Positions 46-22,779 are shown, counted from the stretch's first letter. The stretch: 64,000 bases of DNA from Candidatus Saccharimonadales bacterium (GCA_038231155.1 JBBRLY010000012.1:64645-128644); one strand, 5' to 3'. Notes: generated from the letters alone by a model not told the origin. A program made the numbers and translations.

Positions 46-1104
46 ATGATAACCGACATTAGACTGCAACACTTTAGATCTTATAAAGATTCAGCCTATG
101 AGCTGGACAAGGGTGTCAATATTATTGTTGGGCCAAATGGTAGTGGCAAAACCAACCTACTAGAGGCCTTACTGGTATTAACCAACGGTAGTTCTTACCG
201 GGCTAAAACCAGCGAATTAATTAAGTTTAAAAGTTCTTGGGCTCGCTTAGATGCCCACACAGTTGAAGGTGGCCAAAGAACTGTAAAAATAAATGCTTCT
301 GAAGCCTATCCTGTAAAAACCTTTGATATTAACTCCAGGCCATACAAGCGATTACCCCTGGCTCAAACTTTGCCGACGGTACTATTTGAGCCTCAGCATT
401 TACTACTGCTTAGCGGACGACCGGATCTAAGGCGTGAATTTATTGATGATCTACTTGAACAATCAATAATCGGCTTTGGCGAAACCCGGAGGGCCTATAA
501 GCGGGCGGTTTATCAACGCAATAATTTATTAAAAAAGGGTCCACAGCTGGCCCAGTCTCAACTTTTTGCCTGGGATATTAGAGTCAGTGAATTAGGCGGC
601 CAAATCGTTAAGCACCGACTAGAAATAGTTGAGAAACTTGCCGGTCAAATAGGCAGCCTATATAAGCATCTGTCTAGTAGTAAAGCTAATGTTAACCTAA
701 GCTATGACAGCTCATTAGCTCTACCTAACTACAGTACTAACTTACTTAATAAATTAGAGTCCAGCAGTGACCTTGATTTTATCCGCGGTTTTACCAGCCA
801 TGGGCCGCACCGCGATGACCTTAAGATTGAAATTAATAAACATATTGCTCAGGACGTAGCTTCACGCGGCGAAAACCGGACTATTTTACTGGCTCTAAAA
901 ATTATGGAACTGCAAATATTACAGAAACTGCGAGATCAAAAACCATTGCTACTTTTAGATGACGTTTTTAGTGAGCTAGATGGATCACGCCGCCGGGCTT
1001 TAACTGGCTATCTAAAAGACTATCAGACTTTTATTACTACAACTGACGCTGATTTAGTGATCCACGACTTTGCTCAAAAGTGTAATATTATTCCGCTTGG
1101 CTAG
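46..1104 (+). CDS. recF: DNA replication and repair protein RecF
   Basis: Walker A GPNGSGKTNLLEA near N-terminus, Walker B-like LLLDDVFSELD near C-terminus, ~350 aa SMC-like architecture typical of RecF. Confidence 0.9.
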   Translation: MITDIRLQHFRSYKDSAYELDKGVNIIVGPNGSGKTNLLEALLVLTNGSSYRAKTSELIKFKSSWARLDAHTVEGGQRTVKINASEAYPVKTFDINSRPYKRLPLAQTLPTVLFEPQHLLLLSGRPDLRREFIDDLLEQSIIGFGETRRAYKRAVYQRNNLLKKGPQLAQSQLFAWDIRVSELGGQIVKHRLEIVEKLAGQIGSLYKHLSSSKANVNLSYDSSLALPNYSTNLLNKLESSSDLDFIRGFTSHGPHRDDLKIEINKHIAQDVASRGENRTILLALKIMELQILQKLRDQKPLLLLDDVFSELDGSRRRALTGYLKDYQTFITTTDADLVIHDFAQKCNIIPLG

Positions 1105-1112: not shown

Positions 1113-1817
1113 TTATTCAAGCCCGCGGATAACGAAATAATCAATTCTTTCTTTTTGAGTATCTATTCCATGATCTGTCATATACTTTAGAGCTGCCGCT
1201 TTTTGGGTAGCAACTGGTGAGTTTGTCACTCTTACCAGGAAATAATCATCACTTTCGATATATTCAATTGAATAATTATCGTTGGTATATGGTAAAGACT
1301 TAATAAATTTGTTTCTGGCACTATTAACATCCTGAGTTTGATCGGTTTGATTAATTTGCTGTTGCTGTTGATCGGCAGGCAACTCATTAAACGGTACGTA
1401 CGTAACATTAAAGCTTAGTGTAATATCTGGCAGAGTTTTGCCTTGCTCTGATTTAATGTGAGTTAAGTGCATGGTATAGGGTTGGGATGTAAGTCCTTGA
1501 ATGCCGGGTTTAAAAACAACTTTTTTACCACTAATACTTACTGAACCGGGTGTCTCCGGACTGATAGCTACAATATTAAAGTCAAACCCAGTGCTGTAGT
1601 TTTGGCTATCAGTAGAGGTACTGTTAGCTTTAGCTAAGTTTTGATTAAAATAAAAGCTAACAATCTGAGTTGTTGGGACATTTTGTGAGCCATTGGCTGG
1701 ATCGGTTCTAACAAGATGAAATTGATGACCCGTTATAACGGCATAAATAATTACCAAAATAAGAACGGCCAAAATCCCAAAAATAATAACTGTACGCTTC
1801 ATTTTAGTCTGCCCCAC
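1113..1817 (-). CDS. membrane-anchored hypothetical protein, last gene of the T4SS-like operon
   Basis: Single N-terminal hydrophobic helix (VIIFGILAVLILVIIYAVI); its start overlaps the stop of the upstream hydrolase gene by 19 nt; no catalytic motif recognised. Confidence 0.5.
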   Translation of the reverse strand: MGQTKMKRTVIIFGILAVLILVIIYAVITGHQFHLVRTDPANGSQNVPTTQIVSFYFNQNLAKANSTSTDSQNYSTGFDFNIVAISPETPGSVSISGKKVVFKPGIQGLTSQPYTMHLTHIKSEQGKTLPDITLSFNVTYVPFNELPADQQQQQINQTDQTQDVNSARNKFIKSLPYTNDNYSIEYIESDDYFLVRVTNSPVATQKAAALKYMTDHGIDTQKERIDYFVIRGLE

Positions 1818-3043
1818 CCGATTATACGATTAGACGACGGATAATTAGTATAAGTGTTACGCTTGACGCTATTACTGGCATTGCCTTCAATTGTCGTGAT
1901 AGTCGTACCGCTGACGGTTTCAACTATACCAGCATGGTCAAGGTTACCACTGGTATCAGCATTACTACCGGAGTTACTAAAGATGACCACATCACCTGGT
2001 TGGGGTGCTGTCGCAGTTGGAAGGTTTTGGTAGAAGTTAGCATTGGCCTTAAACCAACTTTCTAGCCCTGGCACGCCGGGTAGCCTCCATCCACCGCTTT
2101 CTCCTCCGGTGAATGATACCCCAGCTGTCATATATACCCAACTCACAAAATTAGCACACCAGGATTGACAGATACCACCCATATACTTGTTGTTAACAGA
2201 TGGTAAACAGTTTGAGCCATCTGGCTGCTCATGAACATTAAAAGCTAACTCCGCTTCGGCAACCGCCACAATTTTACTACCCACTGCGCTACCACCAGCC
2301 GAGCAATCAACACCCGGATTTGGTTGGCTAGTTATTTTGTTGATGGTTTGAGTAGCGTTATTAACGTAATCGCTGGACTTATTTCCGACACTATCTGTCG
2401 CTCCGTTGGCATTACCGGTTAACCACTTATTGATAATCCTATCAAACGTACTAACGCTTGGATCATTAACGTATCCGGTCTTTAAACGGTTGAAAACGCT
2501 GTTACCTGCGGTCAGACTGGCTTCAAATGATGGAAAAATTATCCAAGTAAATCCACCAACCCGTAATCCAGGATCGCCACTACCAGCAGTCATACCAAAC
2601 GCGTTATGGGTGCCTTGATTAATTCCCCCGCTTCTTTGATCGGAACCTATACCAGACTCTTGAGCCCCAATCGCTATCACTAACATTGGATTCACGCCTG
2701 TGGCCTTTCCTTGGGCGACTAAAGTGGCACCTAAGGTTGGAATTTGTAAGAACGGCGAATTAGGATATGATTTTTGAATAAAACTGGTTAAAGCAGCTGC
2801 AAAAGCTGTTTCATCTGTAATATTAGGTAAACTACCGGAAATACAACCACCGGCAACACCGCTTTGTGAAGACTCATCGTTAATTTTCCAGTTTACCCAG
2901 GTACCGTTTATAGCATCAATATCATCCTGCGGAAGTGGCGCGGCGTGAACAGCTCCAGAATGGAAAACTAAACATAGCAACGTGTAGCAACAAACTACTA
3001 ATATTTGACCAGTTCTTGAAGTAGCATTCTTTAGACTTTTCAT
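1799..3043 (-). CDS. secreted peptidoglycan hydrolase, SLT/lysozyme-like N-domain plus C-terminal CHAP amidase/peptidase domain (VirB1-like)
   Basis: Signal-peptide-like N-terminus; AIGAQESGIG resembles the SLT catalytic E-S motif; C-terminal CQSWCANFVSWVY ... GDVVIF ... DHAGIVE matches the CHAP Cys/His pattern; same two-domain design as pIP501 TraG / pCF10 PrgK. Confidence 0.75.
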   Translation of the reverse strand: MKSLKNATSRTGQILVVCCYTLLCLVFHSGAVHAAPLPQDDIDAINGTWVNWKINDESSQSGVAGGCISGSLPNITDETAFAAALTSFIQKSYPNSPFLQIPTLGATLVAQGKATGVNPMLVIAIGAQESGIGSDQRSGGINQGTHNAFGMTAGSGDPGLRVGGFTWIIFPSFEASLTAGNSVFNRLKTGYVNDPSVSTFDRIINKWLTGNANGATDSVGNKSSDYVNNATQTINKITSQPNPGVDCSAGGSAVGSKIVAVAEAELAFNVHEQPDGSNCLPSVNNKYMGGICQSWCANFVSWVYMTAGVSFTGGESGGWRLPGVPGLESWFKANANFYQNLPTATAPQPGDVVIFSNSGSNADTSGNLDHAGIVETVSGTTITTIEGNASNSVKRNTYTNYPSSNRIIGWGRLK

Positions 3044-3062
3044 ATTACTAAGTCTTTAATTA

Positions 3063-6000
3063 TTACTGCCACGTTGGCCATCCATTCGGTAGAGGAATAT
3101 TGCTGACATCGCTTGTTAAGTGTCCCGGCGGTGCACCCAGACTTTGCAGAAGCTGCGAAAAGTTTATACCAAGTTGAGTGCTAAGATTCTCATGGTAAAT
3201 TGCATGAGCTAAGGCATGCTCACCAAACCCAGGTTCAGCCCAGCCAGTTTCAATACCAGGGCCTTTAGGAACTTCAAACATATTACAAATAACTGTATCC
3301 GCTGTTACACTTTGTCCAGGACCGATAGTCGGAGTACAATCCTCGGCAAAATATACAAACTTGCCAGCTGCCGGACCGTCTTTAAGTTGGTAAGAAATCC
3401 AGCCTCCACCCGGCCATCCGGCACCACTACTAGCGTCAATAACAGTGCCGTTACCCAGAGCGTAAATTGGTCCAACGCCATGGTAGTCGACGCCCTGATC
3501 TATTCTAGTCGGGCTTAAGCCTTTGACATCACGTAAAGGATTTTTATAACCAGTTGGGCTAGTCGGTGCTGTAGATGGAGTGGTTTGGGTTGCAGCAGCA
3601 CCCCCACTTAAGTCATCAGGCGTAAGCACATCAGTAGAGTAATAACCGCCATCGCTACCGACAGTTGATTGGATTAATAGGCAAGGATCAACATTGGTAT
3701 TTTCCAACTGCCCATTATCTTGATTAACACTATTAACGGAGTCTTGATTCCAGGCTTGAGTCTTGGAACTATCCTGACAGTTTTGGTTCCAGTAAGTTTC
3801 AGGATCAGTAGGGATTTGGTTGTCTGGATATCCATATTGAGTGATACCAAAAGGATCAGGACTAGTAGAAGCCGCTTCAGCTTTACCAGGTGTAAAGACT
3901 GAAGCTAAGCCATGAATTAATTTATCAAACGGATTACTAACTATGCTGCTAAATGTACCGTTGACTGCCGAGCTTTTGTCCAACGGTATCGTCATAGCCA
4001 TTCTGGATACAAGCGAAAACTGACTGTCTTTACTGAACATCCGAGCCAAAAATGGTCGCTTCTGGAATTCATACTTAGCCTGAGCAGTTTGTTCATTAAC
4101 AATATTAGCTGCTTGCTGAGACGAAATTGCTTGTGCTCCCAAACCGTGGTGGGCAAAGTCATTACCTGAAACATCAGCCCCGCCAGCCATCAGGTTGAAA
4201 GTTCGAGCTCCACTCATATCCGTACCTAAGGGATTTGGAAATACAAAGTTTGCGACAATCTTAAATATCGGCTGAGCCAGTTTACCGACTAAACTACTTA
4301 CATAACTTAAGGCGTCGGAAAAACCAGGTATATTGCCAACTATACCGCTGATAACGCTACCTACAAATCCTAAACCTTTACCTACTGTTCCATTCCAGAC
4401 CGAAGCCAAAGTCCCTATGCCTGCCAAATCACCAGAGTTTAACTGATCACTAATACTACTTAAAGTTGCGTTACCGCCGTTTAGTTGTTCTTCAGAACAG
4501 ACTTTTCCAGTGGATGGTATGCTGCCATCATTACAACTATTGGTACCAGAAATATTGTTGGGATCGGGTTTTATTGATGCTGCGTAAACTTTACTTGGTT
4601 GCGTAAAGCCAGTAGAACTAGAACCACTTGATCCATTGACTATTTGGTCATAAACAGGTGAGGCTTCAGCTGTTGCTGTACCACCTACTTGGTTCGGATC
4701 AATACCTTTGGCATTTAGACCGTCCGGATTGTGATAGCCTGGCCCCAAAGAGTCATTAAAAGAACCGGCTTCATTAGGATCAACATGCCCCGCTTTAAGC
4801 TGGTCGGCATATGTCCGGTATGTCATATATACACCCACCATCGCTGCAGCTCCAATAGCGTACTTGGCAGCTTTAGCCGCAGGACCAAGTTTTTGCAAAC
4901 CGCCAATTATTTGAGATGCCAAATTAACCCAACCAATTACTGGCAAAGCTTTATCTACTGACTGGGCAGCGGCTTGTTGAGCGGCCTCGTCTCCACCGGC
5001 TTGTCCGACAAGTGAAATGGCCAATTGTTTTACGAAATAATTACCTAGGCCATTATCAGCTACATCTTGGTAGAGTTTAAAGGCATCATCTGTGAGATAG
5101 CGGGCAACTAATTTATCCAAGGTAGTACGCATTTCCCTTTGGCCTTGGGTTTCGGCTTCTCCATTTAGTTCACAGTCTTTTCCTTCACTGCAAGGGACAG
5201 TTGTAGCATGTGATGGCTCACAATCTTTTTGGCCCAGCAAACACAGCAGAGCTGTACCTAGAATTTGACTTCTTGGTAGTATTACCCGCTGCGCTATATA
5301 TACTTGTGCTGCTCGTTTAGGTTTTTGCAAGGTATCGTTTATGCTCTCCACGGCCCTATTTTTTTTGCAACCTAAATCTGTTAGACATCTTTTAATACCG
5401 AATTTTTGCTCAATAAACTTGCCAAACTTAAAACGAAGTATTACCTGCTTCCACTTAGATTCTTTACTTATAGCATCATCAACAGCTTGTCTAACCTGGG
5501 TTCTATTAACTTGAGTAAATATATTCTCCGGCGAGGCAATATCGACCGCTGCTGGTGAGCTTAGACCTGGAGCCCGTAAAAAATACTGACGACTAACAGT
5601 ATTATATTTAAGTTCAATACCATAGGTATCACGTAGGCTACTTTCAAGTTTATTGTTATGCCATACTTTATATAAATTTGATATAGGTGATCCGGTTCCA
5701 TTCATATAAGGCGGTGTACAACCAGTTCTTACAACGCTGCCTTGACACTGCTTGGCATTAATTTTAAATAGTCCACTGACAAGGTTATTTGTTTCTTTTT
5801 GAACAGCATTTTCTTCGGAAGAGAAAAATCGGCTATGCAGGCTCTCAACAATTCCAATAATTTTAAGTGGTAAAAGTGACACGAAGCCAAAAATTATTAT
5901 TCCAATAATACCGCCACCAATGCCGGCCCCAAAGATGGCCCGGCGGCGGCCTTTACCGCCAAAAACTAGTTGCCTGCCTCGGCCAACCCTAGAATGATCT

Positions 6001-6260
6001 TCTGGGTTATAGCCCTCACCTATTTGGCCAGATTCAGATTCATCGGCCTTACTGGCAGTAGGTGATTCTGCGCCTTTTTCTTTTTTAGCCAGAGCTTCAG
6101 GTGCCGATGATTTTGAGCCACTATCTTCTGCGGCACCTTCCTGGGCCGACTGATCCATATCTGATTCTTCTTCAGGCGATATTCCAGTAAGTTCACGCAT
6201 ATGTGCATCGTCTTGATCGTCTTTGTTTTTTTCTTTATCGTATACGGATAATGCTGCCAT
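3063..6260 (-). CDS. large (1065 aa) T4SS-associated membrane protein with charged N-terminal tail, TM segment and big ectodomain; possible degenerate LytM/M23-like C-terminal domain
   Basis: Long uninterrupted ORF; acidic/lysine-rich first ~100 aa then GIGGGIIGIIIFGFVSLLPL hydrophobic segment; C-terminal DQGVDY..G.PIYALGNGTV..GIETGW follows M23 strand order but lacks HxxxD/HxH. Confidence 0.45.
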   Translation of the reverse strand: MAALSVYDKEKNKDDQDDAHMRELTGISPEEESDMDQSAQEGAAEDSGSKSSAPEALAKKEKGAESPTASKADESESGQIGEGYNPEDHSRVGRGRQLVFGGKGRRRAIFGAGIGGGIIGIIIFGFVSLLPLKIIGIVESLHSRFFSSEENAVQKETNNLVSGLFKINAKQCQGSVVRTGCTPPYMNGTGSPISNLYKVWHNNKLESSLRDTYGIELKYNTVSRQYFLRAPGLSSPAAVDIASPENIFTQVNRTQVRQAVDDAISKESKWKQVILRFKFGKFIEQKFGIKRCLTDLGCKKNRAVESINDTLQKPKRAAQVYIAQRVILPRSQILGTALLCLLGQKDCEPSHATTVPCSEGKDCELNGEAETQGQREMRTTLDKLVARYLTDDAFKLYQDVADNGLGNYFVKQLAISLVGQAGGDEAAQQAAAQSVDKALPVIGWVNLASQIIGGLQKLGPAAKAAKYAIGAAAMVGVYMTYRTYADQLKAGHVDPNEAGSFNDSLGPGYHNPDGLNAKGIDPNQVGGTATAEASPVYDQIVNGSSGSSSTGFTQPSKVYAASIKPDPNNISGTNSCNDGSIPSTGKVCSEEQLNGGNATLSSISDQLNSGDLAGIGTLASVWNGTVGKGLGFVGSVISGIVGNIPGFSDALSYVSSLVGKLAQPIFKIVANFVFPNPLGTDMSGARTFNLMAGGADVSGNDFAHHGLGAQAISSQQAANIVNEQTAQAKYEFQKRPFLARMFSKDSQFSLVSRMAMTIPLDKSSAVNGTFSSIVSNPFDKLIHGLASVFTPGKAEAASTSPDPFGITQYGYPDNQIPTDPETYWNQNCQDSSKTQAWNQDSVNSVNQDNGQLENTNVDPCLLIQSTVGSDGGYYSTDVLTPDDLSGGAAATQTTPSTAPTSPTGYKNPLRDVKGLSPTRIDQGVDYHGVGPIYALGNGTVIDASSGAGWPGGGWISYQLKDGPAAGKFVYFAEDCTPTIGPGQSVTADTVICNMFEVPKGPGIETGWAEPGFGEHALAHAIYHENLSTQLGINFSQLLQSLGAPPGHLTSDVSNIPLPNGWPTWQ

Positions 6261-6280
6261 GTGTAATTACTTATTTGATT

Positions 6281-8233
6281 CTAGACACCAGGAGTTAAGC
6301 GATTATCTAAATCGATTGTGCCTTGAGGTGGAGGAGCTACTTGACCACCAGCCACATTAAACTCACCTTGCTGTTGTTGTTCGATTTGCTGGACTTGAGC
6401 CGGATTGGTCGTAATCAGACCCATTTCGGTAGGGCTAGCGGCAATTTGGATATGTACGTGGCTCTGACCGGCAAAAAATAGACCTTGACCAACTGGAAAT
6501 TGACTTAATCTTTTCTTCTCTTCACTAGTCAGTTTAAATACATCGGTCAATACGTCAACAGCGGATGAGGACTGCTTTAAAAGTAACTGCATAGAAGCAT
6601 TAGCTACAATTGCTCGGCCCATGCGGCTGCCCATAAAATCTTCAACGTCTTGGCTGATAGTAGTTAAACCTAGGTTATATTTACGAGCTCGCTTAGCTAG
6701 ACTGAACATAAAGCTTGCTGAATCTTCATATCTCATAAGCTGCCAGGCTTCATCGATTATTAGCATGCGTCTTTTTTTATCACTCTTGGTTTTGTTCCAA
6801 ATAAAGTTCAAGACAATATACATGGCTACAGGGCGAAGCTCGTCTTCTAAATCACGGATATTAAAAACTACAAATGGATTATTAATGTCTATATTGCTTT
6901 GTTGAGAAAATATACCGGCAAAGGTACCGGACGTGTATTTGCGTAATCGCTGTGCCAATTGTGGCCCAGTGCCACCCATGTGCAGCAGTGTATCGTACAG
7001 TTCATTAATAGTTGGCGGAGTACCTATATGAGTCAATGGATCATTCGTAATCCCAGCTTTGGCATAGGTCTCAATTAAGGCTGCATCCAGATCAGCCTCT
7101 TCAACGGGGGTTAAGGCTGGCAAAGTCGCAACATTACCGCCGACCATTTGAGCTTGAGCTCCACCCATCATAAGACGCAGTAGTCCATGCAGCGTTATTA
7201 AGTTACTACGCAGGGCATTATCGGCTTCATCACTATCGACAACTTGCGGTAAATCAAACGGGTTAATGCGTGTGGCCGAGTTTAAACTCAAACGCACATA
7301 AGACCCACCAACAGCTTCACACATCCGTTGATACTCATTCTCTGGGTCAATTACAAAGATCTCAGTGCCAAACATTAAACTGCGTAGAGCTTCCAACTTA
7401 ACAGCAAAACTTTTACCGGCTCCCGATTTGGCAAACACCACACTATTGCCGTTTTCCAAACTAAATCGGTCAAAAATTACTAGTCCGGAGTTATGCATAT
7501 TAATGCCATATAAAATACCGCTATCTTGCGAAAGGTCAGCGCTAGTAAACGGAAAACTTGTACTAATTGCCCCAGTATTCATGTTGCGTCTAATTTGCAG
7601 TTGATCACTAAACTGAGGGACGGTGCTATTAAATCCTTGTTCCTGCTGAGCACTAGCCGTTTTACTATAAACTAGCTGCTGGCCTAAAATAGACTCGACT
7701 TTATGTGAAATAAACTCCAGTTCGTCCATTGAAGATCCGTAAATAGTAAAATACATACCAAAACGGAAGAAACGTTCTTCGCCAACTTGCAACTTGTCGC
7801 GCATTTCCTCAGCATCTTGAATAGCGGCTTGTTTGCCCGGGTCTCGGACCTTACCCTTCTCATTGTCAATTTGGATACCGGCTTCCAGCTGGGTAACCTT
7901 TTTACGTAAGTTTTCTAGTACCACCTGGCTTTCAACAGGATATATGAACATAGATAAGTCCATTACCTCATCTAGATTGACCATGCTACTCATCCAACCA
8001 GTAAAAATCTGACGTGGATAACCATAAACGTAGAAGGTTCTAGCAAAGCGCGTACCAAGATGAAAAAAACCATTCTCAAACACTAAAGAACTAGGTGCGA
8101 TAAAATCCCGTAGAGCAGTTACACCCTTTTGGAAGGCGGCATTAACTTCCTGTTGTTCACGCATCTGCTGCTCTTGGGCCAGCACTACCGGATCAACTTT
8201 TGGCTTTCTGCCAAACATCAGGCTTTCTCCCAA
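6281..8233 (-). CDS. virB4: VirB4/TraE/PrgJ-family type IV secretion ATPase
   Basis: Walker A FAKSGAGKSFAVK, Walker B RRMLIIDEAWQL, 650 aa, N-terminal CagE/TrbE-type domain; sits between PrgI-like and hydrolase genes. Confidence 0.9.
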   Translation of the reverse strand: MGESLMFGRKPKVDPVVLAQEQQMREQQEVNAAFQKGVTALRDFIAPSSLVFENGFFHLGTRFARTFYVYGYPRQIFTGWMSSMVNLDEVMDLSMFIYPVESQVVLENLRKKVTQLEAGIQIDNEKGKVRDPGKQAAIQDAEEMRDKLQVGEERFFRFGMYFTIYGSSMDELEFISHKVESILGQQLVYSKTASAQQEQGFNSTVPQFSDQLQIRRNMNTGAISTSFPFTSADLSQDSGILYGINMHNSGLVIFDRFSLENGNSVVFAKSGAGKSFAVKLEALRSLMFGTEIFVIDPENEYQRMCEAVGGSYVRLSLNSATRINPFDLPQVVDSDEADNALRSNLITLHGLLRLMMGGAQAQMVGGNVATLPALTPVEEADLDAALIETYAKAGITNDPLTHIGTPPTINELYDTLLHMGGTGPQLAQRLRKYTSGTFAGIFSQQSNIDINNPFVVFNIRDLEDELRPVAMYIVLNFIWNKTKSDKKRRMLIIDEAWQLMRYEDSASFMFSLAKRARKYNLGLTTISQDVEDFMGSRMGRAIVANASMQLLLKQSSSAVDVLTDVFKLTSEEKKRLSQFPVGQGLFFAGQSHVHIQIAASPTEMGLITTNPAQVQQIEQQQQGEFNVAGGQVAPPPQGTIDLDNRLTPGV

Positions 8234-8276
8234 TGGTCGAAACTAAAACCTAGATTCTGGTTTTGCTTAAAGCCGG

Positions 8277-9212
8277 TCATTTCAGTTCCCTATCTAAATT
8301 AGGTTGTCGAGCGTCACCTACTCCCTTGGTTACTACCGGCGTAGACAAATCATTGAAGTTTTTAAGTTCCTGGCGGGTAGCAGTATCGGGGTTATATACA
8401 TCATAATAAAGTTCAATTAGTTCCTGGGTATCAAGTGGTAGGCCCTGAATACCACATTGCAACAAACCACCCAACACAGCCTGAACCCGGTTACGTAGTT
8501 CGGCCTTAGCTTTTTCTAAATCATTCTCGTTAACGGTTACGTGTCGCTCCTTATTATTGAACAAAGCTGCTACACCGCTGAAAAGGTTTTTACTGGCAGT
8601 AAAGGCTTTTTGAATATCGACTGTCGGGAAATAGGGAATAATTAGGTAGAACTTCTTATCCATAATGTTGGTTTGTTGAGCCAACTGATCCATGTAGACA
8701 ATGTAATCTTCCATCATAAGCGCCAGCAGCATATTTTCATGCTCAGTCCGGATTTTATCCAACTTTTGAATGTATGGGCCGAGATCAACTTTTCGGGAGT
8801 GAATAAAAATTTGGATCGGGAAATAAAGTGAGTTTAAAAAGCCTTGGTAACTGTATTCCACAGCTTCTCTTTCTTGGGGACTCATCAGATCAAAGTTAAT
8901 AGACTTTGCCATTACTACAGAACGGAAAGAGCCATCATTCATAATTACAAAGCCATCACGAATTTCGGCAATTTGCAGGGCATTTTGAGTACTGTTGGGG
9001 TTAGCTTTAATGATTGACGGTTGAGCAGCGGGCGGCTGGCTAGAAGCTTGTGGAGATTGCTGTGGAGGCGCATATTGACCATAAGTCGGTGGCTGCACTG
9101 TCGACGGTATTGGTTGATCATACGAATTAGAATCCCGCTGAGCCGGAGCATAAGGATTATTAGGTGGTGGAGGTGGTGGTTGGTTAGTTGGGTTAGGTAA
9201 GTCTGGATTCAT
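8277..9212 (-). CDS. T4SS accessory protein, Pro/Gln-rich N-terminus plus globular C-domain (function unknown)
   Basis: Operon position between PrgI-like and VirB4 genes; N-terminal 70 aa low-complexity P/Q; no motif recognised with certainty. Confidence 0.4.
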   Translation of the reverse strand: MNPDLPNPTNQPPPPPPNNPYAPAQRDSNSYDQPIPSTVQPPTYGQYAPPQQSPQASSQPPAAQPSIIKANPNSTQNALQIAEIRDGFVIMNDGSFRSVVMAKSINFDLMSPQEREAVEYSYQGFLNSLYFPIQIFIHSRKVDLGPYIQKLDKIRTEHENMLLALMMEDYIVYMDQLAQQTNIMDKKFYLIIPYFPTVDIQKAFTASKNLFSGVAALFNNKERHVTVNENDLEKAKAELRNRVQAVLGGLLQCGIQGLPLDTQELIELYYDVYNPDTATRQELKNFNDLSTPVVTKGVGDARQPNLDRELK

Positions 9213-9378
9213 AGCTAACTCATCATAATTTTAAAGTCTTCAAAATACTGCATGTTCTTAAATTCATTGACCTTGTGCCAAATCAAAAACAAAAACGGAA
9301 ATTTATTGGCGTTATGGAGTCTAACAAAATTCATGTATATAAGGCCACCCTCTGATGTTAGACGACCTTTGGGCCAGG

Positions 9379-10515
9379 TTAGCGGAGTGGAACCACAACC
9401 TCGTTATCGGGCGGCTCCGGCTCGGGCTTTTTATTAACTTGCCGAGCAATGGTGGCCACTGATAAGTCGTCATTATTAGCAAACTCAAGTATAGCAGGGT
9501 TAAGCGTTTTGCCGCTAGTGTTGGCTTCTCTGTTGCCGGTTTGTTTGACATGATGCTTAGATTTAGAGGCTGATTTATTTCGGCGCTTGGAGTTCAGCGG
9601 CTCAATTACTCTGGTATGACCGTAAGCAACTAGAGGTTTTTCACTTTGTTTATGCAGCTGATTTAGTAAAGTTTGTTCAGTCGAGGTTAAAGGTGCGTCT
9701 GGTAAATCGCTGTCATTGGTTCCCGGTGCAACTGTTTGGGTACCAGTAAAGGTAGCGTAATCCGGTGGTACTTTTTCGGGCTTAGGCTGGTGCATAAACC
9801 AAAAATCTGGTGTTGGAGGTCGGTTTTGATGATCGGCTTTTTTAAGATGTTTAGGTGTACGGGCGTTGTCTAAAGTCTTTAAGGCAGATTGCCGATGGTT
9901 TTTAGATGAATCAGCCACCATTTGACTGAGGTGTACGGCAGTCGGGTTATTTTGTTCGTCCATAATGTCATCAGCAGCATGAACTTCAACATTGGGTACT
10001 TCACGAGCCAAAGCAGATAAATCAATTAACCTATCCGTTGTACGGTTAGCCATAGCCGAAGGCTGGTTAAACATATTAACGCTGGCGTTTTTCACAGCCC
10101 AACCACGGCTATCTATGGTATCGGCCAGGGCTTTAAGCCGGCTCTTTACTTCAACTTGACTAAGATTATTACTGACATATTGGTCTGCGGCGTGCTTGGG
10201 GGCAGTGATGGTAACCAATTCCTGCATGCCTGTTTGATCCCAAATACGGTGGCGTGGCTTTAGGATGAACCGAATTTTAGCTAAAAGCCATATCTCTGTT
10301 GGTTGATCTCTTCCCCATGGAAAAGCTAAAAAACCACTGACTAGCATAACCGGTATTAGCGGTATAGCTAAGAACCAAACATGTCTGGTTAAGAAAAAGA
10401 AGCTCATATAGCCACATACAAAAAATATACAAGCTAATATGAACTGCTTAAGCGTTAACGGTCCGACAAACTTGTCTTCTGCTTCTATATCTTGTAATAC
10501 TTTATATCCGGCCAT
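9379..10515 (-). CDS. PrgI-family (VirB3-like) T4SS membrane protein with long C-terminal extension
   Basis: N-terminus YKVLQDIEAEDKFVGPLTLKQFILA followed by two hydrophobic helices, the hallmark of PrgI/VirB3-like proteins of monoderm T4SS. Confidence 0.65.
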   Translation of the reverse strand: MAGYKVLQDIEAEDKFVGPLTLKQFILACIFFVCGYMSFFFLTRHVWFLAIPLIPVMLVSGFLAFPWGRDQPTEIWLLAKIRFILKPRHRIWDQTGMQELVTITAPKHAADQYVSNNLSQVEVKSRLKALADTIDSRGWAVKNASVNMFNQPSAMANRTTDRLIDLSALAREVPNVEVHAADDIMDEQNNPTAVHLSQMVADSSKNHRQSALKTLDNARTPKHLKKADHQNRPPTPDFWFMHQPKPEKVPPDYATFTGTQTVAPGTNDSDLPDAPLTSTEQTLLNQLHKQSEKPLVAYGHTRVIEPLNSKRRNKSASKSKHHVKQTGNREANTSGKTLNPAILEFANNDDLSVATIARQVNKKPEPEPPDNEVVVPLR

Positions 10516-10567
10516 CAGAGTTTAATTATCGTTGAATAAAACATTACAGGCAAGTCTTAAGTGCATA

Positions 10568-13500
10568 TTATTCGGCAGGTGGCGGTGGTGGCACATCTAA
10601 ACCACCAAATCGACTAGGATCTCGAGTTGCTCTTACAAGCGCTGCTTCTACTCTCTTACCAGAATCAGTAGTAGCACGACCATCAGCATCTTTTGGACCT
10701 ATAAGACTATCAAGCTTTGTTCTTAACACTTCGGCGGTTTCTGCAGGTGTGTTATAGCCATAGGCTGCTTGAGCCCATGCATCTAAAGTAGCAGTTTTAC
10801 GGGCATCTGTTACGCGCAGCTTCTGTCCTGATACAGCGTCTGTAATAGTGGCAGTTGCGTCGCTTGAAGTATCGGCGTTCAAAATTGCATCCAAAGCACC
10901 ATTTTTTAGAAAATGTCTTTCTATTTGTGCGCTTTTTGCCCCGGCTAGCTCTTGTACACTAGTTCGGGATAGCTGAATACTTCTAGCTGCAACACCTCCA
11001 GCAATGGTGCGACCAGTAGCTGCATCTACTTGTTCACTATATCCAACCTTACTCAATCCCCCTGCTTGGGCATTTATTAATCCAGCTTGAGTCTTAAAAG
11101 TATCCCCTAAACCTGGCGCAGTATCATTAAGCAAGTTAGTGTAGTTAGCGATTTCGTTATCGTCATCAGATGTAAGGAATCCTTGTTGTGCTTTAGCTAA
11201 ACCTGCAGCATAACCAATATGTGCCCGTCCGAACTCTTCAGTCCTCCAAGTTTCTTCAAGAAAAGAAGCTGAACTTTGAAGCTGATTTGCTCCGGCCAAG
11301 TTTTGTGTCCCACCCTTTGCTCTTAGATGTGCGATACTTTCATCAAGGCCGGCTCTTGTGACACGTCCTTTATTTTTGGCAGAAATACCCATAATCTCAG
11401 TTAAAGCTTCTTGATTAAAACCGGCTTGGGACATCCATTTTGCTAAATCTTGACCTTGCATAGCAGATTTTTGAGTTAATTCCGTTGCTAGGGCGCGACC
11501 CCGAGGAGTACCTAATGCAATTCTGGCGGTGTTCATAGGATCTGCTACACCTCCAGCAAGTCTATTAAGCCCTCTTAATTTTCCGGTTGGATTAAATCGG
11601 CGATTTTGAGAAGCAAATTCGTGTAACTCTTTTCTTTGTTGAGTTCGTTTCTCTCTTTGTTTATCAAAGAAACCACGTGAGCGATCATTAGCCATACCAG
11701 ATAATGTCGAGAATAGTCCACCAGCAAATCTAAATGTCAGAGGTATTAGGGCATAGGGGATAATATAAGCAAATATAACCAGTACTTGTGATTCCCAACT
11801 AGTTCCTCGAGTATCAGTAATAACTGATGCAAATATTTTACCTGAGCCTATAAGTATCAATATAAATGGGTACATTAAAAGTAATTTAAAAAATGAGTCC
11901 CACCAAAAATCCCAGCCTTTTTTAGTCCCAGGGAATATCCAGCATAAAATGGCCAGTGGTGCCAAAAGTAACAAGGCAAAAATAAGTATTTCCCGCACAG
12001 TTAGTAGCAAAAAGCCTATAAAAAGAATTGCAGCGGTTATTAAAGCTACACTTATAACAATGCCAAAGCTTATTGACCCAGCAAGTATTAATCCACCAAA
12101 TACTAGTAAACCAAGACCGGTAGTAGTTGTACTGTTACTAACTTTTATAAAATCTGCTAGGGTTTTATTAGCCACTCCAAATGGCTGAGTAATTAATCCT
12201 AATATTCCTTGCCCAAGGGAATTGGTGAATACTACCAAAAACCGAGTTATATACCAAGATACGCTGATAAACAAAACGGCTATTAAAAACCGCGGCATGG
12301 TCCGTCTAACAGTATAGGCATCCACAAAGCTGAAATTTAGAGCCGTACTAATTACCATAATTAGCATTAGGGGTACTAATATAATCAAGGCAATGTCTCG
12401 AATTCTCCCCCAGGCTTGCTTTAATTTATCGGTCTGACCATGTGTCCCTAGACTTTCAGGGTCAGGTGTTTTAAGTTGTGCCTGAATAGCAGAATCTAAG
12501 CCCTGAGTAGCTGAATCAAGTAGTTGAATAACTGGGCAAAATGCCCAACCCAATGCACCTGAGTGTGCTCCACAGCTATCAGCAGTAATTGATCCACTGT
12601 TTGCATTATTAGTTGCTAAAGCTGAACTTCCGGCTGGTTTATGACCGTTCTCTTTACCACCACCAATAACTTCTCTAAGCCCTTTTGCAATTTGACAAGC
12701 CCCATTATTTTGCAGATTTCTACCAGCATTGAAAATATCATTTGGCCAGCCATCGTTTAAATTATCATTTCTTAGTATAAGAGTACTTTTAGGTTCTCCA
12801 GGAACCGAAGCCGTAAATGATGACGAATAACAATCTGGAGGTGTTGAATTGTTTCCAACACGGCCCTCCGTGCCATAATAAGGTCCAGTTCCATTGGTTT
12901 GAACAAATATTATACTTGCCGTATTATTAGCGTCATCGGTTGAGGAAATTGTTCCAGCATCCTGCCACCAAAAATATATATCGTACGCGTCACTGCCTGT
13001 TTCCGGGTCTATGGGATTTTTAAAATTAATTGGTGAATCTTGCTCGGCACAATTATTTGTGTCGGCACCGGTAAATAAATGAATTGTGGCAGTTGCTGTG
13101 GCGAGGTGAAGGGTATCGTTGCCAATATTATTTGGCCAACTATCAATATAGTTTTTACCAGCACATCCTTGGACGTTTATAGCGCTAAAACCCAATGTGT
13201 CATCAATCTTCGGGTCTTTGTAAGTAATACCGCCTGATGTAATGGTACTGTGGTTTACCCAGGTACCTGATTGAGGTACCGGACCAGTTGGACCAGAAGG
13301 TATGGTGATAGTTATAGGAAAATTCTTACCATTAATACTGCCGCAAACGCCCCCGCTAGGAGTAATAGTAGCCTTAGTATCTTTATCTTGCCCATTGCTG
13401 GTTCTTAGATAGTAAAAACAATCATTTGACGGGTCACTACTATTACCATCTTCAAATACATATTCTCCTTTAGAATTCCATTTAAATGTAGCTTGCTTGG

Positions 13501-13666
13501 GACTGTTTGGAATATCAGGCCCGGTAATTGTTATATTAAATTCGTTTGAGTTGTCGTGATAAATGTAAGAAGAAGCAGCATTTACACTTTTTGGTTGTAA
13601 TAAGCTGGCTAATAGTGGGACAAGCAACAGGAGACTAAACCCAACAAGTAATAAGCGACGTTTCAT
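10568..13666 (-). CDS. VirB6/TrbL-like polytopic T4SS channel protein with ~400-aa secreted N-domain and ~370-aa C-terminal tail
   Basis: Signal peptide ending VNA/AS; Cys-containing ectodomain; cluster of at least 6 hydrophobic helices in the middle third; soluble tail ending PPPPPAE; operon context. Confidence 0.6.
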   Translation of the reverse strand: MKRRLLLVGFSLLLLVPLLASLLQPKSVNAASSYIYHDNSNEFNITITGPDIPNSPKQATFKWNSKGEYVFEDGNSSDPSNDCFYYLRTSNGQDKDTKATITPSGGVCGSINGKNFPITITIPSGPTGPVPQSGTWVNHSTITSGGITYKDPKIDDTLGFSAINVQGCAGKNYIDSWPNNIGNDTLHLATATATIHLFTGADTNNCAEQDSPINFKNPIDPETGSDAYDIYFWWQDAGTISSTDDANNTASIIFVQTNGTGPYYGTEGRVGNNSTPPDCYSSSFTASVPGEPKSTLILRNDNLNDGWPNDIFNAGRNLQNNGACQIAKGLREVIGGGKENGHKPAGSSALATNNANSGSITADSCGAHSGALGWAFCPVIQLLDSATQGLDSAIQAQLKTPDPESLGTHGQTDKLKQAWGRIRDIALIILVPLMLIMVISTALNFSFVDAYTVRRTMPRFLIAVLFISVSWYITRFLVVFTNSLGQGILGLITQPFGVANKTLADFIKVSNSTTTTGLGLLVFGGLILAGSISFGIVISVALITAAILFIGFLLLTVREILIFALLLLAPLAILCWIFPGTKKGWDFWWDSFFKLLLMYPFILILIGSGKIFASVITDTRGTSWESQVLVIFAYIIPYALIPLTFRFAGGLFSTLSGMANDRSRGFFDKQREKRTQQRKELHEFASQNRRFNPTGKLRGLNRLAGGVADPMNTARIALGTPRGRALATELTQKSAMQGQDLAKWMSQAGFNQEALTEIMGISAKNKGRVTRAGLDESIAHLRAKGGTQNLAGANQLQSSASFLEETWRTEEFGRAHIGYAAGLAKAQQGFLTSDDDNEIANYTNLLNDTAPGLGDTFKTQAGLINAQAGGLSKVGYSEQVDAATGRTIAGGVAARSIQLSRTSVQELAGAKSAQIERHFLKNGALDAILNADTSSDATATITDAVSGQKLRVTDARKTATLDAWAQAAYGYNTPAETAEVLRTKLDSLIGPKDADGRATTDSGKRVEAALVRATRDPSRFGGLDVPPPPPAE

Positions 13667-13751
13667 TTTATTAAACTATAGCATAATGACATGTTTGTTA
13701 TCAGATAAGATCTCCCTTGTATAATATCATATGGGCAAAGGTATATTAACC

Positions 13752-13780
13752 TTGCCCTAAATCTTTGACAGATCTATAAT
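13752..13780 (+). promoter_or_regulatory. putative sigma70-type promoter of the pilin gene array
   Basis: TTGCCC - 17 nt - TATAAT read directly; ends 8 nt before the first ATG, implying a very short leader. Confidence 0.35.
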
Positions 13781-13788
13781 CTAACTGG

Positions 13789-14205
13789 ATGATAAGTATC
13801 AAAAATAAAAAAATTCGTAAAATACTACCGGCAATAATCGCCGTTTGTTTTGTTGGGCTACTACTATTATTTATAGGCATAAATACTAGTACAGCTAATG
13901 CAGATATCCTAACAAGTAAACAATTTAACGCTCCTTGTAATGACCCCAACGGTACAATAACTGCAAGTAACTGTGGAATAGTTGCCTACTTACAACTATT
14001 TATTAATGTACTATCCGGACTAGTTGGTATAGTAATTGTTATCATGATTATCTGGGGCGGAATTGAATACTCATCGGCTGGTAATGATCCTCAAAAAGTC
14101 GGAGCGGCTAAAAGTAAAATCTCTAACGCGCTGCTTGCCTTAGTTGTCTTTATATTTATGTATTCGTTCTTACAATGGGTAGTCCCAGGGGGGATATTCC
14201 ATTGA
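13789..14205 (+). CDS. VirB2/TrbC-like pilin paralog 1
   Basis: N-terminal signal/anchor helix, then helix - WGGIEYSSAGND loop - helix hairpin at C-terminus. Confidence 0.65.
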   Translation: MISIKNKKIRKILPAIIAVCFVGLLLLFIGINTSTANADILTSKQFNAPCNDPNGTITASNCGIVAYLQLFINVLSGLVGIVIVIMIIWGGIEYSSAGNDPQKVGAAKSKISNALLALVVFIFMYSFLQWVVPGGIFH

Positions 14206-14603
14206 GCAGTCTAATCTTTATCTGGCTACATCATTTTGCTGCAGCTTGTAAGCTAGCTCCAGGTGTCGGTGGCAGCTTTTTAGGTTTCCCAACTTGGTAT
14301 AAATATATAAATCATGGCATTGGCACTACTTCTTTCGGTCAAGGAACATGTACTCCAGTTTTTAGTTTTCCAGGTGATATTGGTAATGTCCTGTTAGCGA
14401 TTGTCGAAATCTTGCTTCGTATTGCAGCATTAGTAGCTGTAGCTTTTGTGATTGTCGGTGGGTTTGGTTACATAACTAGTCAAGGTGAACCAGAAAGAAC
14501 CAGGGCTGCCCAAGGCACTATTATTAACGCTATAATTGGTCTGGTAATAGCCATTATCGCAACGTTTGTTGTAACCTTTCTAGCTACTAATATAAATAAG
14601 TAA
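14175..14603 (+). CDS. VirB2/TrbC-like pilin paralog 2
   Basis: C-terminal helix - VGGFGYITSQGE loop - helix; a TTG at about 14202 overlapping the upstream TGA (TTGA) is a more likely start than the track start. Confidence 0.6.
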   Translation: MGSPRGDIPLSSLIFIWLHHFAAACKLAPGVGGSFLGFPTWYKYINHGIGTTSFGQGTCTPVFSFPGDIGNVLLAIVEILLRIAALVAVAFVIVGGFGYITSQGEPERTRAAQGTIINAIIGLVIAIIATFVVTFLATNINK

Positions 14604-14607
14604 TACC

Positions 14608-14895
14608 ATGCCAATAATTTTTAATCACATAGCCGATATACTTAAGACCACGGACGTAAATCTACCCCACGGCGACCCCTCTAAAGCTTTGCCCAATATT
14701 CTTAAAATTGTATTCGCACTGTCTGGCGCGGTATCGCTTTTAATAATAACTATTGCTGCTCTTCGAATGGTTTTATCTCAAGGTAACCCCGATAGCATTA
14801 ATCGAGCTCGTAACACCATTTTATATGCCGTTTTGGGTCTGATCATTAGTGTTTTTGCATTTACAATAGTGGCTTACGTAATTAAGAGAATTTAA
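14608..14895 (+). CDS. VirB2/TrbC-like pilin paralog 3 (short, divergent loop)
   Basis: Two hydrophobic helices separated by SQGNPDSINRARN loop; lacks the long N-domain of its neighbours. Confidence 0.5.
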   Translation: MPIIFNHIADILKTTDVNLPHGDPSKALPNILKIVFALSGAVSLLIITIAALRMVLSQGNPDSINRARNTILYAVLGLIISVFAFTIVAYVIKRI

Positions 14896-14896
14896 T

Positions 14897-15307
14897 ATGA
14901 AATTATTAATCTCAATACTTATATCAATATTATCGGTATTTTTAGTACTACAGTTTGGTCATGCCCGAGCCGACTTTACTGGACCGTTTTCAGATGTTTG
15001 TAAAACCAACCCGAACGCTACAGTTTGTATTGACTCTAATACTAAGAATAATCCGCAAGATATTAATGGTAGTAACTCAATTTTCGGCAAGGACGGTATC
15101 TTACTCAAGATTACCAATATAGTTAGTATCTTTGTAGGTGTGGCATCAGTAATCATGATAGTTGTTGGTGGTCTTAAATATGTTTTATCTAGTGGCGACC
15201 CTAATAACACCACCTCAGCCCGTAACACGGTCATTTATGCCATAGTCGGGTTAGTAGTAGCCGTAATGGCCCAGGTCATAATTGCTTTCGTTATAAATAA
15301 GCTATAA
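14897..15307 (+). CDS. VirB2/TrbC-like pilin paralog 4
   Basis: Signal peptide, Cys pair in N-domain, C-terminal VGGLKYVLSSGDPNN hairpin; starts 1 nt after upstream stop. Confidence 0.65.
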   Translation: MKLLISILISILSVFLVLQFGHARADFTGPFSDVCKTNPNATVCIDSNTKNNPQDINGSNSIFGKDGILLKITNIVSIFVGVASVIMIVVGGLKYVLSSGDPNNTTSARNTVIYAIVGLVVAVMAQVIIAFVINKL

Positions 15308-15318
15308 TTATCAAAGTT

Positions 15319-15714
15319 ATGAAGCGCTTTTTTAACCAATTATCAGCAACTTTTATATCACTAGCACTACTTCTTGGACTAGTGGGATTAACGGCTGGAA
15401 CTGTCTATGCGGCTGGCGCAAAAGACAGTGTCTGTCAGGGCATTGGTTTGGTTAGCGGTGATAATGGCTGTGAAACTCCGGCCGGAAGTAAAGGCATAAA
15501 CGACATCACCCAAATTGTTGTCAACACGCTTAGCATTGTTGTTGGTTTTATAGCCGTAATTATGATAATTATTGGTGGCTTAAAATATGTCACCTCCTCA
15601 GGAGATTCTAATAATGTTAGCTCGGCTAAAAATACCATCCTGTATGCCATTGTTGGCCTAGTTATAGTCGCTTTGGCTCAGGTAATCGTAAGATTTGTGC
15701 TAAAGAAAGTTTAA
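15319..15714 (+). CDS. VirB2/TrbC-like pilin paralog 5
   Basis: Signal peptide, Cys pair, IGGLKYVTSSGDSNNVSSAKNTILYAIVGLVIVALAQ. Confidence 0.7.
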   Translation: MKRFFNQLSATFISLALLLGLVGLTAGTVYAAGAKDSVCQGIGLVSGDNGCETPAGSKGINDITQIVVNTLSIVVGFIAVIMIIIGGLKYVTSSGDSNNVSSAKNTILYAIVGLVIVALAQVIVRFVLKKV

Positions 15715-15793
15715 CCAAGAGGCATAAATAGTTGAAAGCCACAAAGTGTTTATGATATAAAACAAGGTAGTATAATGAAAGGTATTAACTAAT

Positions 15794-16219
15794 ATGATTA
15801 AAAAAATAAGAGCATTACTGTTTAGTCTGGCTGGGGCAATAACTTTATTATTGCCAGCGATAGCCATGCCGGTATTGGTACACGCCGATAGTATTCAGCC
15901 CGGTCTAGGATGTGGTGCTAACCTTCAGTTTACAGACAGTCCAACTACGGACTGTAGTGGTGGTAATGGCGATCCCCAGGGAACAGTCAATAATATTGTT
16001 AAAACGGTTATTAACATATTTTCCGTAGTCGTAGGTATCATTGCGGTTATCTTTATAATCATTGGTGGTATTAAGTACATAACTTCTGGTGGTGACTCTA
16101 ATAATGTTTCCAGCGCCAAAAATACAATCTTGTACGCGATTGTTGGTTTAGTAATTGTAGCTTTGGCTCAAATCTTGGTCAGATATGTTCTAGCTAAAGT
16201 TTCCCAATCAACTCAATAA
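15794..16219 (+). CDS. VirB2/TrbC-like pilin paralog 6
   Basis: Signal peptide, Cys pair, IGGIKYITSGGDSNNVSSAKNTILYAIVGLVIVALAQ. Confidence 0.7.
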   Translation: MIKKIRALLFSLAGAITLLLPAIAMPVLVHADSIQPGLGCGANLQFTDSPTTDCSGGNGDPQGTVNNIVKTVINIFSVVVGIIAVIFIIIGGIKYITSGGDSNNVSSAKNTILYAIVGLVIVALAQILVRYVLAKVSQSTQ

Positions 16220-16258
16220 GATTAAATTGTAAGGGGTCCAATCAGGACCATAAAAATA

Positions 16259-16293
16259 GAAAAAGACCCTAAATCATTACCAGGGTCTTTTTC
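16259..16293. terminator. bidirectional intrinsic terminator between pilin array and hsp20
   Basis: GAAAAAGACCCT - 11 nt loop - AGGGTCTTTTTC, A-run and T-run on either side, between convergent genes. Confidence 0.7.
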
Positions 16294-16302
16294 TAAAATT
16301 GT

Positions 16303-19036: not shown

Positions 19037-19129
19037 CCTTCTCCGTCCTGCTCGCCGGACTCTCCCGAGGAAGCCTCAAGGAGCCCAAACCAGCCGACGG
19101 GGACCGTCAGGTGCTGCCGTTTTCGACGA

Positions 19130-22748: not shown

Positions 22749-22779
22749 TTTAGCTCCTAACTAAAAAGGACGACCGGTT

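Follow-up and report, generated by a model that had tools for sequence, protein, structure and literature searches.

Results

A type IV secretion locus beside the replication origin

We analysed a stretch of 64,000 nucleotides (GCA_038231155.1, JBBRLY010000012.1:64645-128644), hereafter the window, from a metagenome-assembled genome of Saccharimonadales (Saccharibacteria). Open reading frame (ORF) listing and hidden Markov model (HMM) searches revealed a type IV secretion system (T4SS) cluster at positions 1113-16219, in which seven co-directional genes on the minus strand face six pilin genes on the plus strand. The cluster was confirmed to be a real Gram-positive-style T4SS, located beside the replication origin of an uncultured Saccharibacterium. 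The guanine-plus-cytosine (GC) content of the locus is 0.39-0.45, the same as in the remainder of the window. A first-pass annotation, made from the sequence alone, had described five components in the minus-strand block. All five are present and backed by HMM matches, but the block holds seven genes; the two that had been overlooked encode a Big_5 Ig-like exported protein (1113-1817) and a 311-amino acid (aa) TrsD-like protein (8277-9212). The Pfam HMM searches suggested at that stage were run on the proteins and supported the identities of the components.

Relatives of VirB4 were collected from 397 candidate stretches of species-representative genomes and the best 80, almost all labelled Saccharibacteria or Saccharimonadales, were compared (loci L001-L080). 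The counts of related loci given below refer to these 80.

VirB4 and its separately encoded N-domain

The VirB4 ATPase is encoded at 6281-8233 on the minus strand. Both motifs reported at first pass, SGAGKSF and LIIDEAW, were found, and the protein matched NCBIfam conju_CD1110 (5e-105), P-loop_TraG (3.2e-28) and AAA_10. The conju_CD1110 match reached 352 bits against a cutoff of 325 and covered model positions 177-733 only. The best solved relative is the C-terminal domain of Thermoanaerobacter VirB4 (PDB 4AG5, 7.6e-52), and the nearest plasmid VirB4s, from Actinomycetes and Bacillota, are 35-37% identical. The ORF is 650 aa long as listed, whereas the product called on identical public contigs has 645 aa. 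The protein is without the usual N-terminal domain and has no transmembrane helices.

Directly upstream of virB4 lies the gene of the 311-aa protein (8277-9212, minus strand), which has a Pro/Gln-rich N-terminus and, in 78 of the 80 related loci, a counterpart at 59-82% identity. It matched NCBIfam TrsD (NF041427, 4.8e-6) and positions 4-119 of the CD1110 VirB4 model (5.5e-5), both below cutoff, and a precomputed Pfam match assigns it to PF26593 (TraC-like). A sequence search of the PDB with this protein found nothing relevant. Because the 311-aa protein matches both TrsD and the N-terminal positions of the VirB4 model, the N-domain of VirB4 is predicted to be encoded separately, as in pGO1-type systems. 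Although the TrsD matches are sub-cutoff, the position and conservation of the gene agree with them, and we count the protein as TrsD-like.

PrgI-like and VirB6-like membrane proteins

The gene at 9379-10515 (minus strand) encodes a 378-aa PrgI/VirB3-like membrane protein, as had been annotated: PF12666 matched over aa 5-91 with 5.4e-11 (43.3 bits against a cutoff of 27). A hydrophobic stretch at aa 16-65 probably forms two transmembrane helices, and the protein carries a long low-complexity C-terminal extension. It is present in 74 of the related loci.

The 1032-aa polytopic protein encoded at 10568-13666 (minus strand) resembles an "extended VirB6", with a signal peptide, a ~400-aa beta-rich ectodomain, 5-6 transmembrane helices and a ~390-aa helical cytoplasmic tail. 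The earlier VirB6-like label fits this topology and a precomputed Pfam match to TrbL_3 (PF19590, E<=1e-5), found for the protein and for 11 of 12 listed homologues. In contrast, our own hmmscan gave only a weak match to TrbL (PF04610, 0.22), with five of the 12 homologues matching and a best value of 0.0019. Run at E<=10, it returned neither PF19590 for this protein nor PF26593 for the TrsD-like protein; the two Pfam sources evidently differ. PDB sequence and profile searches with the 1032-aa protein found nothing relevant. An AlphaFold2 model built from a 12-sequence alignment had a mean predicted local distance difference test score (pLDDT) of 53.5 and a predicted template modelling score of 0.31, too poor to confirm the fold or for a meaningful fold search; Foldseek against the PDB with this poor model gave no match at E<0.25, with R388 TrwI/VirB6 at rank 47 (E 2.3). 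On the precomputed match and the topology, VirB6 appears a reasonable, if provisional, label.

Wall hydrolases and an Ig-like protein downstream of virB4

Peptidoglycan hydrolases downstream of virB4 are a trait of Saccharimonadia T4SSs, and the window locus has them in the form of a CHAP protein and an M23-like giant protein. The giant is a 1065-aa anchored protein (3063-6260, minus strand) with a disordered cytoplasmic N-terminus, one transmembrane helix (aa 117-135), a large ectodomain and an M23-like C-terminal domain; its description as a membrane protein was correct. The whole protein had no direct Pfam or PDB match. A profile of its C-terminal ~160 aa (window 3063-3560) with six homologues matched an M23 peptidase, PDB 9GY1 (1.4e-4), and Pfam Peptidase_M23 was matched by five of the seven members of the C-terminal-domain set (best 8.4e-6). 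The catalytic competence of this domain is doubtful, because DxxxD (RIDQGVDY) stands in place of the HxxxD zinc motif; no HxH is evident either. Possibly it is a degenerate module of the LytM type, acting as a regulator of the neighbouring lysozyme/CHAP hydrolase and not cleaving peptidoglycan itself. The protein was detected in 33 of the related loci with a median identity of 31%, and it appears to be modular, because only six of the 80 relatives share its C-terminal module.

The adjacent gene (1799-3043, minus strand) encodes a 414-aa secreted cell-wall hydrolase with a signal-like N-terminus, a lysozyme-like N-domain and a CHAP domain (1.6e-12). It had been annotated as an SLT-like and CHAP hydrolase. 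The CHAP domain and a lysozyme-superfamily N-domain were recovered, but the HMMs give no SLT call: the N-domain matched Glucosaminidase/GH73 at 1.1e-4, below the Pfam cutoff, and FlgJ weakly at 0.021. These matches point to a VirB1 analogue whose N-domain belongs to the lysozyme superfamily (GH73/FlgJ-like). The hydrolase was detected in 17 of the 80 loci (median identity 33%).

The last gene of the block (1113-1817, minus strand) encodes a 234-aa Ig-like exported or anchored protein with a Big_5 match (1.1e-7) and an N-terminal transmembrane helix at aa 10-28. It evolves fast, being detected in five of the 80 related loci at a median identity of 27%.

Six VirB2-like pilins in a conserved order

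The prediction of six divergent VirB2/TrbC-like genes was fully upheld, with six matches above the PF18895 cutoff at 13789-16219 on the plus strand. Pilin 1 (13789-14205, 138 aa, 6.7e-10) has a signal/transmembrane helix and two C-terminal transmembrane helices. It is followed by pilin 2 (14175-14603, 142 aa as listed, its true start being uncertain; 5.5e-11), pilin 3 (14608-14895, 95 aa, no obvious signal peptide; 6e-9), pilin 4 (14897-15307, 136 aa; 4.6e-10), pilin 5 (15319-15714, 131 aa; 3.5e-13) and pilin 6 (15794-16219, 141 aa; 3.1e-13). TrbC was also matched by pilin 5 (8.6e-5) and, above cutoff, by pilin 6 (1.5e-6), which in addition matched NCBIfam Mbov_0395, a pilin-like conjugal transfer protein model (1e-9).

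The six paralogues share 22-70% pairwise identity, with pilins 5 and 6 at 70%. Each pilin-like ORF in the relatives was assigned to its best-matching window paralogue, and the order 1-2-3-4-5-5/6 was kept in at least 40 of 55 related arrays. Since this order is kept across relatives despite identities of 22-70%, the comparison points to an ancient diversification in which each position was retained, and not to recent amplification. All six pilins of the orthologous system in Southlakia epibionticum ML1 are scored essential (Wang et al. 2023, Cell, PMC10633639). Because of this and of the conserved array order, we favour non-redundant subunits over interchangeable antigenic variants.

The VirB6-like gene and pilin 1 diverge from a 122-bp intergenic region (13667-13788). 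Promoter-like hexamer pairs cluster there on both strands, although the promoter/terminator scan was overall at chance level, and the spacer probably holds promoters in both directions. A hairpin with a 16-bp stem (16257-16295), between the convergent pilin-6 and hsp20 genes, is likely to be a bidirectional terminator.

The locus is resident between recF and hsp20

The left neighbour of the cluster is recF (46-1104, plus strand; Pfam SMC_N 8.4e-22), in agreement with the first-pass annotation, and recF adjoins the T4SS locus in 66 of the 80 relatives. To the left of recF, an identical public contig that reaches 2 kb beyond the window encodes the DnaA C-terminus, an 87-aa ORF and DnaN; the locus is therefore origin-proximal. 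On the right, the array is flanked by hsp20 (16303-16782, minus strand; HSP20 2.1e-19), a conserved neighbour and not a T4SS part, which adjoins the pilins in 37 loci at 71-98% identity.

A comparison of synteny in related genomes had been proposed as a check. With 15 window proteins mapped, the order hsp20, pilins, VirB6-like, PrgI, TrsD-like, VirB4, a variable block of 5-9 kb and recF recurred in the loci of the 80 related species wherever the contig was long enough. VirB4 was 80-90% identical across the 80 species, with a median of 84% that is somewhat inflated by the choice of loci on VirB4 similarity. The median was 81% for hsp20, 70% for the TrsD-like protein and 55% for RecF, and it fell to 41-50% for the pilins, 43% for PrgI and 33% for the VirB6-like protein. 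The contrast between VirB4 and RecF in the same genomes is large despite the VirB4-based choice of loci. Such a combination of a strongly constrained motor and rapidly evolving surface parts would suit a machine at the host interface. Because the gene order recurs between recF and hsp20 and VirB4 is more conserved than RecF, the locus appears to be a vertically inherited, resident core machine and not an integrative and conjugative element (ICE). Its conservation pattern is the opposite of the patchy distribution of an ICE.

Relaxase, coupling protein and integrase searches

Every ORF of at least 300 aa and most smaller ORFs in the 64-kb window were scanned with Pfam, NCBIfam and PHROGs. Among these ORFs there was no family match to a relaxase of any MOB class and no HMM match to a type IV coupling protein (T4CP), whether VirD4 or TcpA/FtsK-like; relaxase and coupling ATPase are also absent from the 2 kb to the left of the window. 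A Walker-A scan of ORFs of at least 120 aa returned recF, VirB4, a chance match in PGI and a 453-aa orphan protein. The HMM and Walker-A scans thus uphold the proposal that the 64 kb holds neither relaxase nor coupling ATPase.

The accompanying claim that no integrase flanks the locus does not hold literally. A large serine recombinase (21135-22748; Resolvase, Recombinase and Zn ribbon domains; phrog_95 2e-62) is encoded 4.9 kb beyond the right-hand end of the pilin array. It is not considered part of the locus, because it lies beyond the conserved hsp20/tRNA-Ser flank. A bounding integrase/att pair, or variable presence among relatives, was not found: as far as each contig goes, the 80 loci are flanked by conserved housekeeping genes.

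The recombinase belongs to an island beside tRNA-Arg(gcg) (window 21087-30062) that further contains the 453-aa orphan P-loop protein (22917-24278), a DUF5681 protein, a C-terminal fragment of Shedu SduA (27363-27707), an Mrr/DUF4365-like ORF and a MazF toxin (29727-30062). The orphan, which carries a Walker-A motif and has neither transmembrane helices nor a T4CP HMM match, was considered as a divergent coupling protein and rejected: its family, which has more than 1,300 representatives, is one of primase-helicase-type replication proteins. Longer members begin with a primase domain of the T7-gp4/DnaG type (5e-5 for a profile against PDB 1NUI), usual in the family and missing in the 453-aa protein. 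A single-sequence AlphaFold2 model of the orphan was unusable (pLDDT 33). The island, which includes defence genes and is probably what remains of an integrated element, is unrelated to the T4SS.

Outside the locus, the window encodes housekeeping proteins such as ValRS, TsaD, Mur ligase, GroEL, PGI, ArgRS, BacA and L,D-transpeptidase. Among these housekeeping genes lie two further ORFs, for a 304-aa Fic/DOC-family protein with an N-terminal helix-turn-helix (55662-56576) and for a 315-aa fusion of a helix-turn-helix to a HAD hydrolase (42089-43036).

A GC-rich block to the right of the locus

A foreign block of ~2.9 kb with 60% GC, in a genome of ~40% GC, occupies window positions 17089-19990. 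It lies between tRNA-Ser(tga) (16998-17088) and tRNA-Ser(gct) (20087-20179), and in six relatives the same tRNA genes are 17-234 bp apart. The block contains an intact nucleoside 2-deoxyribosyltransferase-like ORF (17285-17668; PF05014 1.9e-9), a hydrophobic ORF (19130-19660) and a truncated IS21 left end (18340-19174). This IS21 fragment (838 nt) is 89.6% nucleotide-identical to the left end of an IS21 on a contig that has 64% GC over the 8.5 kb fetched, and its best named protein matches are "Actinomycetota bacterium" IS21 transposases (73-87% identity). Exactly at the IS21 truncation is an AT-rich palindromic element of ~100 bp (18237-18339), bordered by TA at either end, whose inverted-repeat arms are imperfect and 28 nt long. 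It resembles a miniature inverted-repeat transposable element of the mariner/IS630 type, and neither the remainder of the window nor the 80 related loci yielded a further copy.

In two independent sequencing runs, short contigs match the block with 100% identity and also include its junction with the final 26 nt of tRNA-Ser(tga). The identical contigs and the tRNA junction in both runs argue against a binning or assembly chimera. To our knowledge, all cultivated Saccharibacteria grow on Actinobacteria, and for this reason the block may be host-derived DNA, which we offer as a lead only.

Discussion

A probable epibiotic T4SS rather than a conjugation apparatus

We consider it likely, with a probability of about 0.78, that the locus is a vertically inherited, origin-proximal T4SS of Saccharibacteria (class Saccharimonadia), orthologous to SEML1_0004-0019 of Southlakia and to the T4SS region of TM7x, and that it serves as an epibiotic contact and translocation organelle and not as a conjugation apparatus. 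The first-pass annotation had already proposed that the T4SS is resident and non-conjugative, as would fit an ultrasmall bacterium living as an epibiont. This proposal is supported by the organism, the flanks, the recurrent gene order, the high conservation of VirB4 relative to RecF and the lack of a relaxase, a T4CP and a bounding att-integrase pair in the window.

From T4SS biology and Southlakia genetics, a mechanism can be pictured as follows. VirB4, with its N-domain on a separate protein, would dock on PrgI/VirB3 and so be tethered to the membrane, where it would drive a pilin filament or conduit to assemble through the channel formed by the extended VirB6-like protein. Opening the epibiont's own wall, and perhaps that of the host, would fall to the lysozyme/CHAP hydrolase and the giant M23-like protein. 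The machine would then move proteins or other macromolecules across the epibiont-host interface in a contact-dependent manner, and would be needed for epibiotic growth.

Several observations weigh against this interpretation. No substrate or effector was identified in the window and no VirB8-like component was found. The VirB6 assignment depends on the precomputed Pfam match and the topology, with a weak hmmscan of our own and an uninformative structural test, and the VirB4 identities are raised by the way the loci were chosen. The essentiality of clustered Southlakia genes in transposon sequencing (Tn-seq) may include polar effects. Finally, the genome is ~1 Mb in size, of which the 64-kb window and 2 kb beside it were covered, and a distant VirD4 homologue is quite possible.

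The core of the cluster is homologous to monoderm conjugation genes (CD1110-family VirB4, TrsD, PrgI), and the serine recombinase to its right sits beside a tRNA-Arg gene. Both features would suit an ordinary ICE or integrated plasmid whose relaxase, coupling protein and integrase lie just outside the window or are too divergent to be recognised. Synteny effectively refutes this highly improbable explanation, since here and in the 80 relatives the locus lies between dnaA-dnaN-recF and hsp20/tRNA-Ser wherever the contig reaches. VirB4 is moreover better conserved than RecF, the GC content is native, relaxase and T4CP matches are lacking in the window, and the integrase is found outside the conserved flank, where it shares an island of its own with the primase-helicase-type protein, the Shedu fragment and MazF. 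Transport of DNA with the help of partners encoded elsewhere, such as a distant VirD4, is possible but disfavoured; such a system could take up or release DNA in the manner of ComB, the gonococcal genetic island or the archaeal Ced system. Nucleotides must reach Saccharibacteria from outside, and foreign Actinomycetota-like DNA lies 0.9 kb from the pilin array, although this may be coincidence, tRNA genes being common insertion sites. VirB4 also has weak matches to the CedB and CedD DNA-import ATPases, but these fall well short of the cutoff and mirror no more than a common P-loop fold. VirD4/T4CP homologues are frequent in Patescibacteria, usually far from virB4, but the distant t4cp gene of Southlakia is non-essential whereas its T4SS genes are essential (Quiñonero-Coronel et al. 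2025, Microb Genom, PMC12102498). Competence in Southlakia depends on type IV pili and ComEC, and a ΔcomEC mutant is viable (2025 review, PMC12857230), so the essentiality of the T4SS does not come from ComEC-dependent DNA uptake.

With six conserved pilins beside a minimal core, no T4CP to recruit substrates and surface-exposed parts that evolve fast, as expected of host-recognition structures, the system could also be mainly an adhesion or contact organelle, in which a VirB4-driven pilin filament attaches the epibiont and no substrate is translocated. We regard this as unlikely. Saccharibacteria already adhere by two type IV pili (PMC12857230), the VirB6-like channel and wall hydrolases are retained and are essential in Southlakia (PMC10633639), and the Ptl system of Bordetella and the VirB system of Brucella secrete proteins without a T4CP (PMC12102498). 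A pilus conduit for exchange with the host has been speculated upon (PMC12857230). In a further reading, which we consider quite improbable, a coupling-protein-free import or two-way conduit would use an obligate heteromeric filament of six ordered pilins to draw host macromolecules, possibly DNA, into the epibiont. If this were true, the GC-rich Actinomycetota-like block would be the trace of DNA that passed from host to epibiont, and would hint at what the uncultured host is.

Collectively, the evidence favours a resident epibiotic T4SS of the kind already described in Southlakia. The cluster, its lack of relaxase and coupling protein and its essential epibiotic role have been published, and the window adds nothing new in kind. 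It contributes one more instance of the system, taken from an environmental Saccharimonadales genome and slightly more compact in having a single VirB6-like gene and lacking an NTF2-like one. The comparative numbers, namely a motor more conserved than RecF, fast-evolving surface parts and a fixed pilin order, sharpen the published picture slightly without changing it. Few molecular machines are known to be essential to Saccharibacteria and the candidate phyla radiation for living as epibionts. The Saccharibacteria T4SS is among them, and its substrate and direction of transport are a question of real interest.

Comparison with known systems

The closest described system is that of S. epibionticum ML1, SEML1_0004-0019 (PMC10633639). 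The Southlakia run starts with dnaA, dnaN and recF (0003), followed by two small exported Ig-like/prealbumin-like proteins (0004 and 0005), a protein with two lysozyme-like domains and a cysteine-proteinase domain (0006), a 1114-aa protein with a C-terminal DD-peptidase-type fold (0007), VirB4 (0008), a 294-aa protein (0009) and PrgI (0010). Two polytopic proteins of ~1000 aa annotated as T4SS/TrbL-VirB6 (0011 and 0013), with an NTF2-like protein between them (0012), precede the six pilins (0014-0019), hsp20 (0020), one further gene (0021) and tRNA-Ser (0022); nearly all genes of this run were essential by Tn-seq (PMC10633639). The system was described as most like Gram-positive conjugative T4SSs, unusual in its essential pilins and without recognisable coupling or relaxase proteins, and a non-DNA role was suggested (PMC10633639).

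From recF to hsp20/tRNA-Ser, gene order and orientation in the window are the same as in Southlakia, nearly gene for gene, and neither cluster has a recognisable relaxase or T4CP. SEML1_0005, scored essential, is the positional counterpart of the 234-aa Ig-like protein. The counterpart of the window hydrolase is SEML1_0006, which has two lysozyme-like domains where the window protein has a single one, and the DD-peptidase-type C-terminus of SEML1_0007 resembles the peptidase-type end of the 1065-aa protein. Southlakia differs in having two large polytopic proteins, the non-essential NTF2-like 0012 and the extra 0004, whereas the window has a single VirB6-like protein and no NTF2-like one. Essentiality for epibiotic growth is known only for Southlakia; the strong conservation among the relatives of the window locus is consistent with it.

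More broadly, the VirB4 of Patescibacteria forms a clade allied to the MPF-FATA class (MPF, mating-pair formation), with TrsD beside VirB4, VirB2 arrays of 2-11 genes at ~25% mean identity, no relaxase and a locus near dnaA/dnaN (PMC12102498). The window locus shares with these systems the MPF-FATA-related VirB4, the adjacent TrsD homologue, the PrgI-type VirB3, a putative VirB6, the VirB2-like array, the missing relaxase, the absence of a linked T4CP and the position near dnaA/dnaN. The first description came from TM7x, as a conserved T4SS region in which 4-6 small secreted proteins form the "Sec-secreted array" (McLean et al. 2020, PMC7427843). We found nothing of substance that sets the window locus apart from the Patescibacteria-clade T4SS (PMC12102498) or from TM7x (PMC7427843), and regard it as a typical Saccharimonadia example.

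Compared with the MPF-FATA systems themselves (pGO1 Trs, pIP501 Tra, pCF10 Prg and the CD1110-type system of the C. difficile conjugative transposon), the locus shares a CD1110-family VirB4, a TrsD-like protein, PrgI, a polytopic protein that is putatively VirB6/PrgH-like and a two-domain muramidase and CHAP hydrolase like PrgK/TraG. In contrast to them, it is without relaxase, T4CP, oriT-processing genes and surface adhesin. It is also chromosomal, origin-proximal and vertically inherited, and its VirB4 is at best 35-37% identical to theirs. We know of no Gram-positive-type T4SS with VirB2-like pilins other than that of Saccharibacteria. The window locus carries such pilins, which Gram-positive systems lack (PMC12102498, PMC12857230). 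Finally, the T4CP-less diderm systems, Bordetella Ptl and Brucella VirB, have in common with the locus the missing coupling protein and an array of small signal-peptide proteins beside the apparatus, an analogy drawn by McLean et al. (PMC7427843). These, however, are diderm MPF-T systems with VirB7/9/10 outer-membrane cores, and the small proteins of the window are VirB2-family pilins, not toxin subunits.

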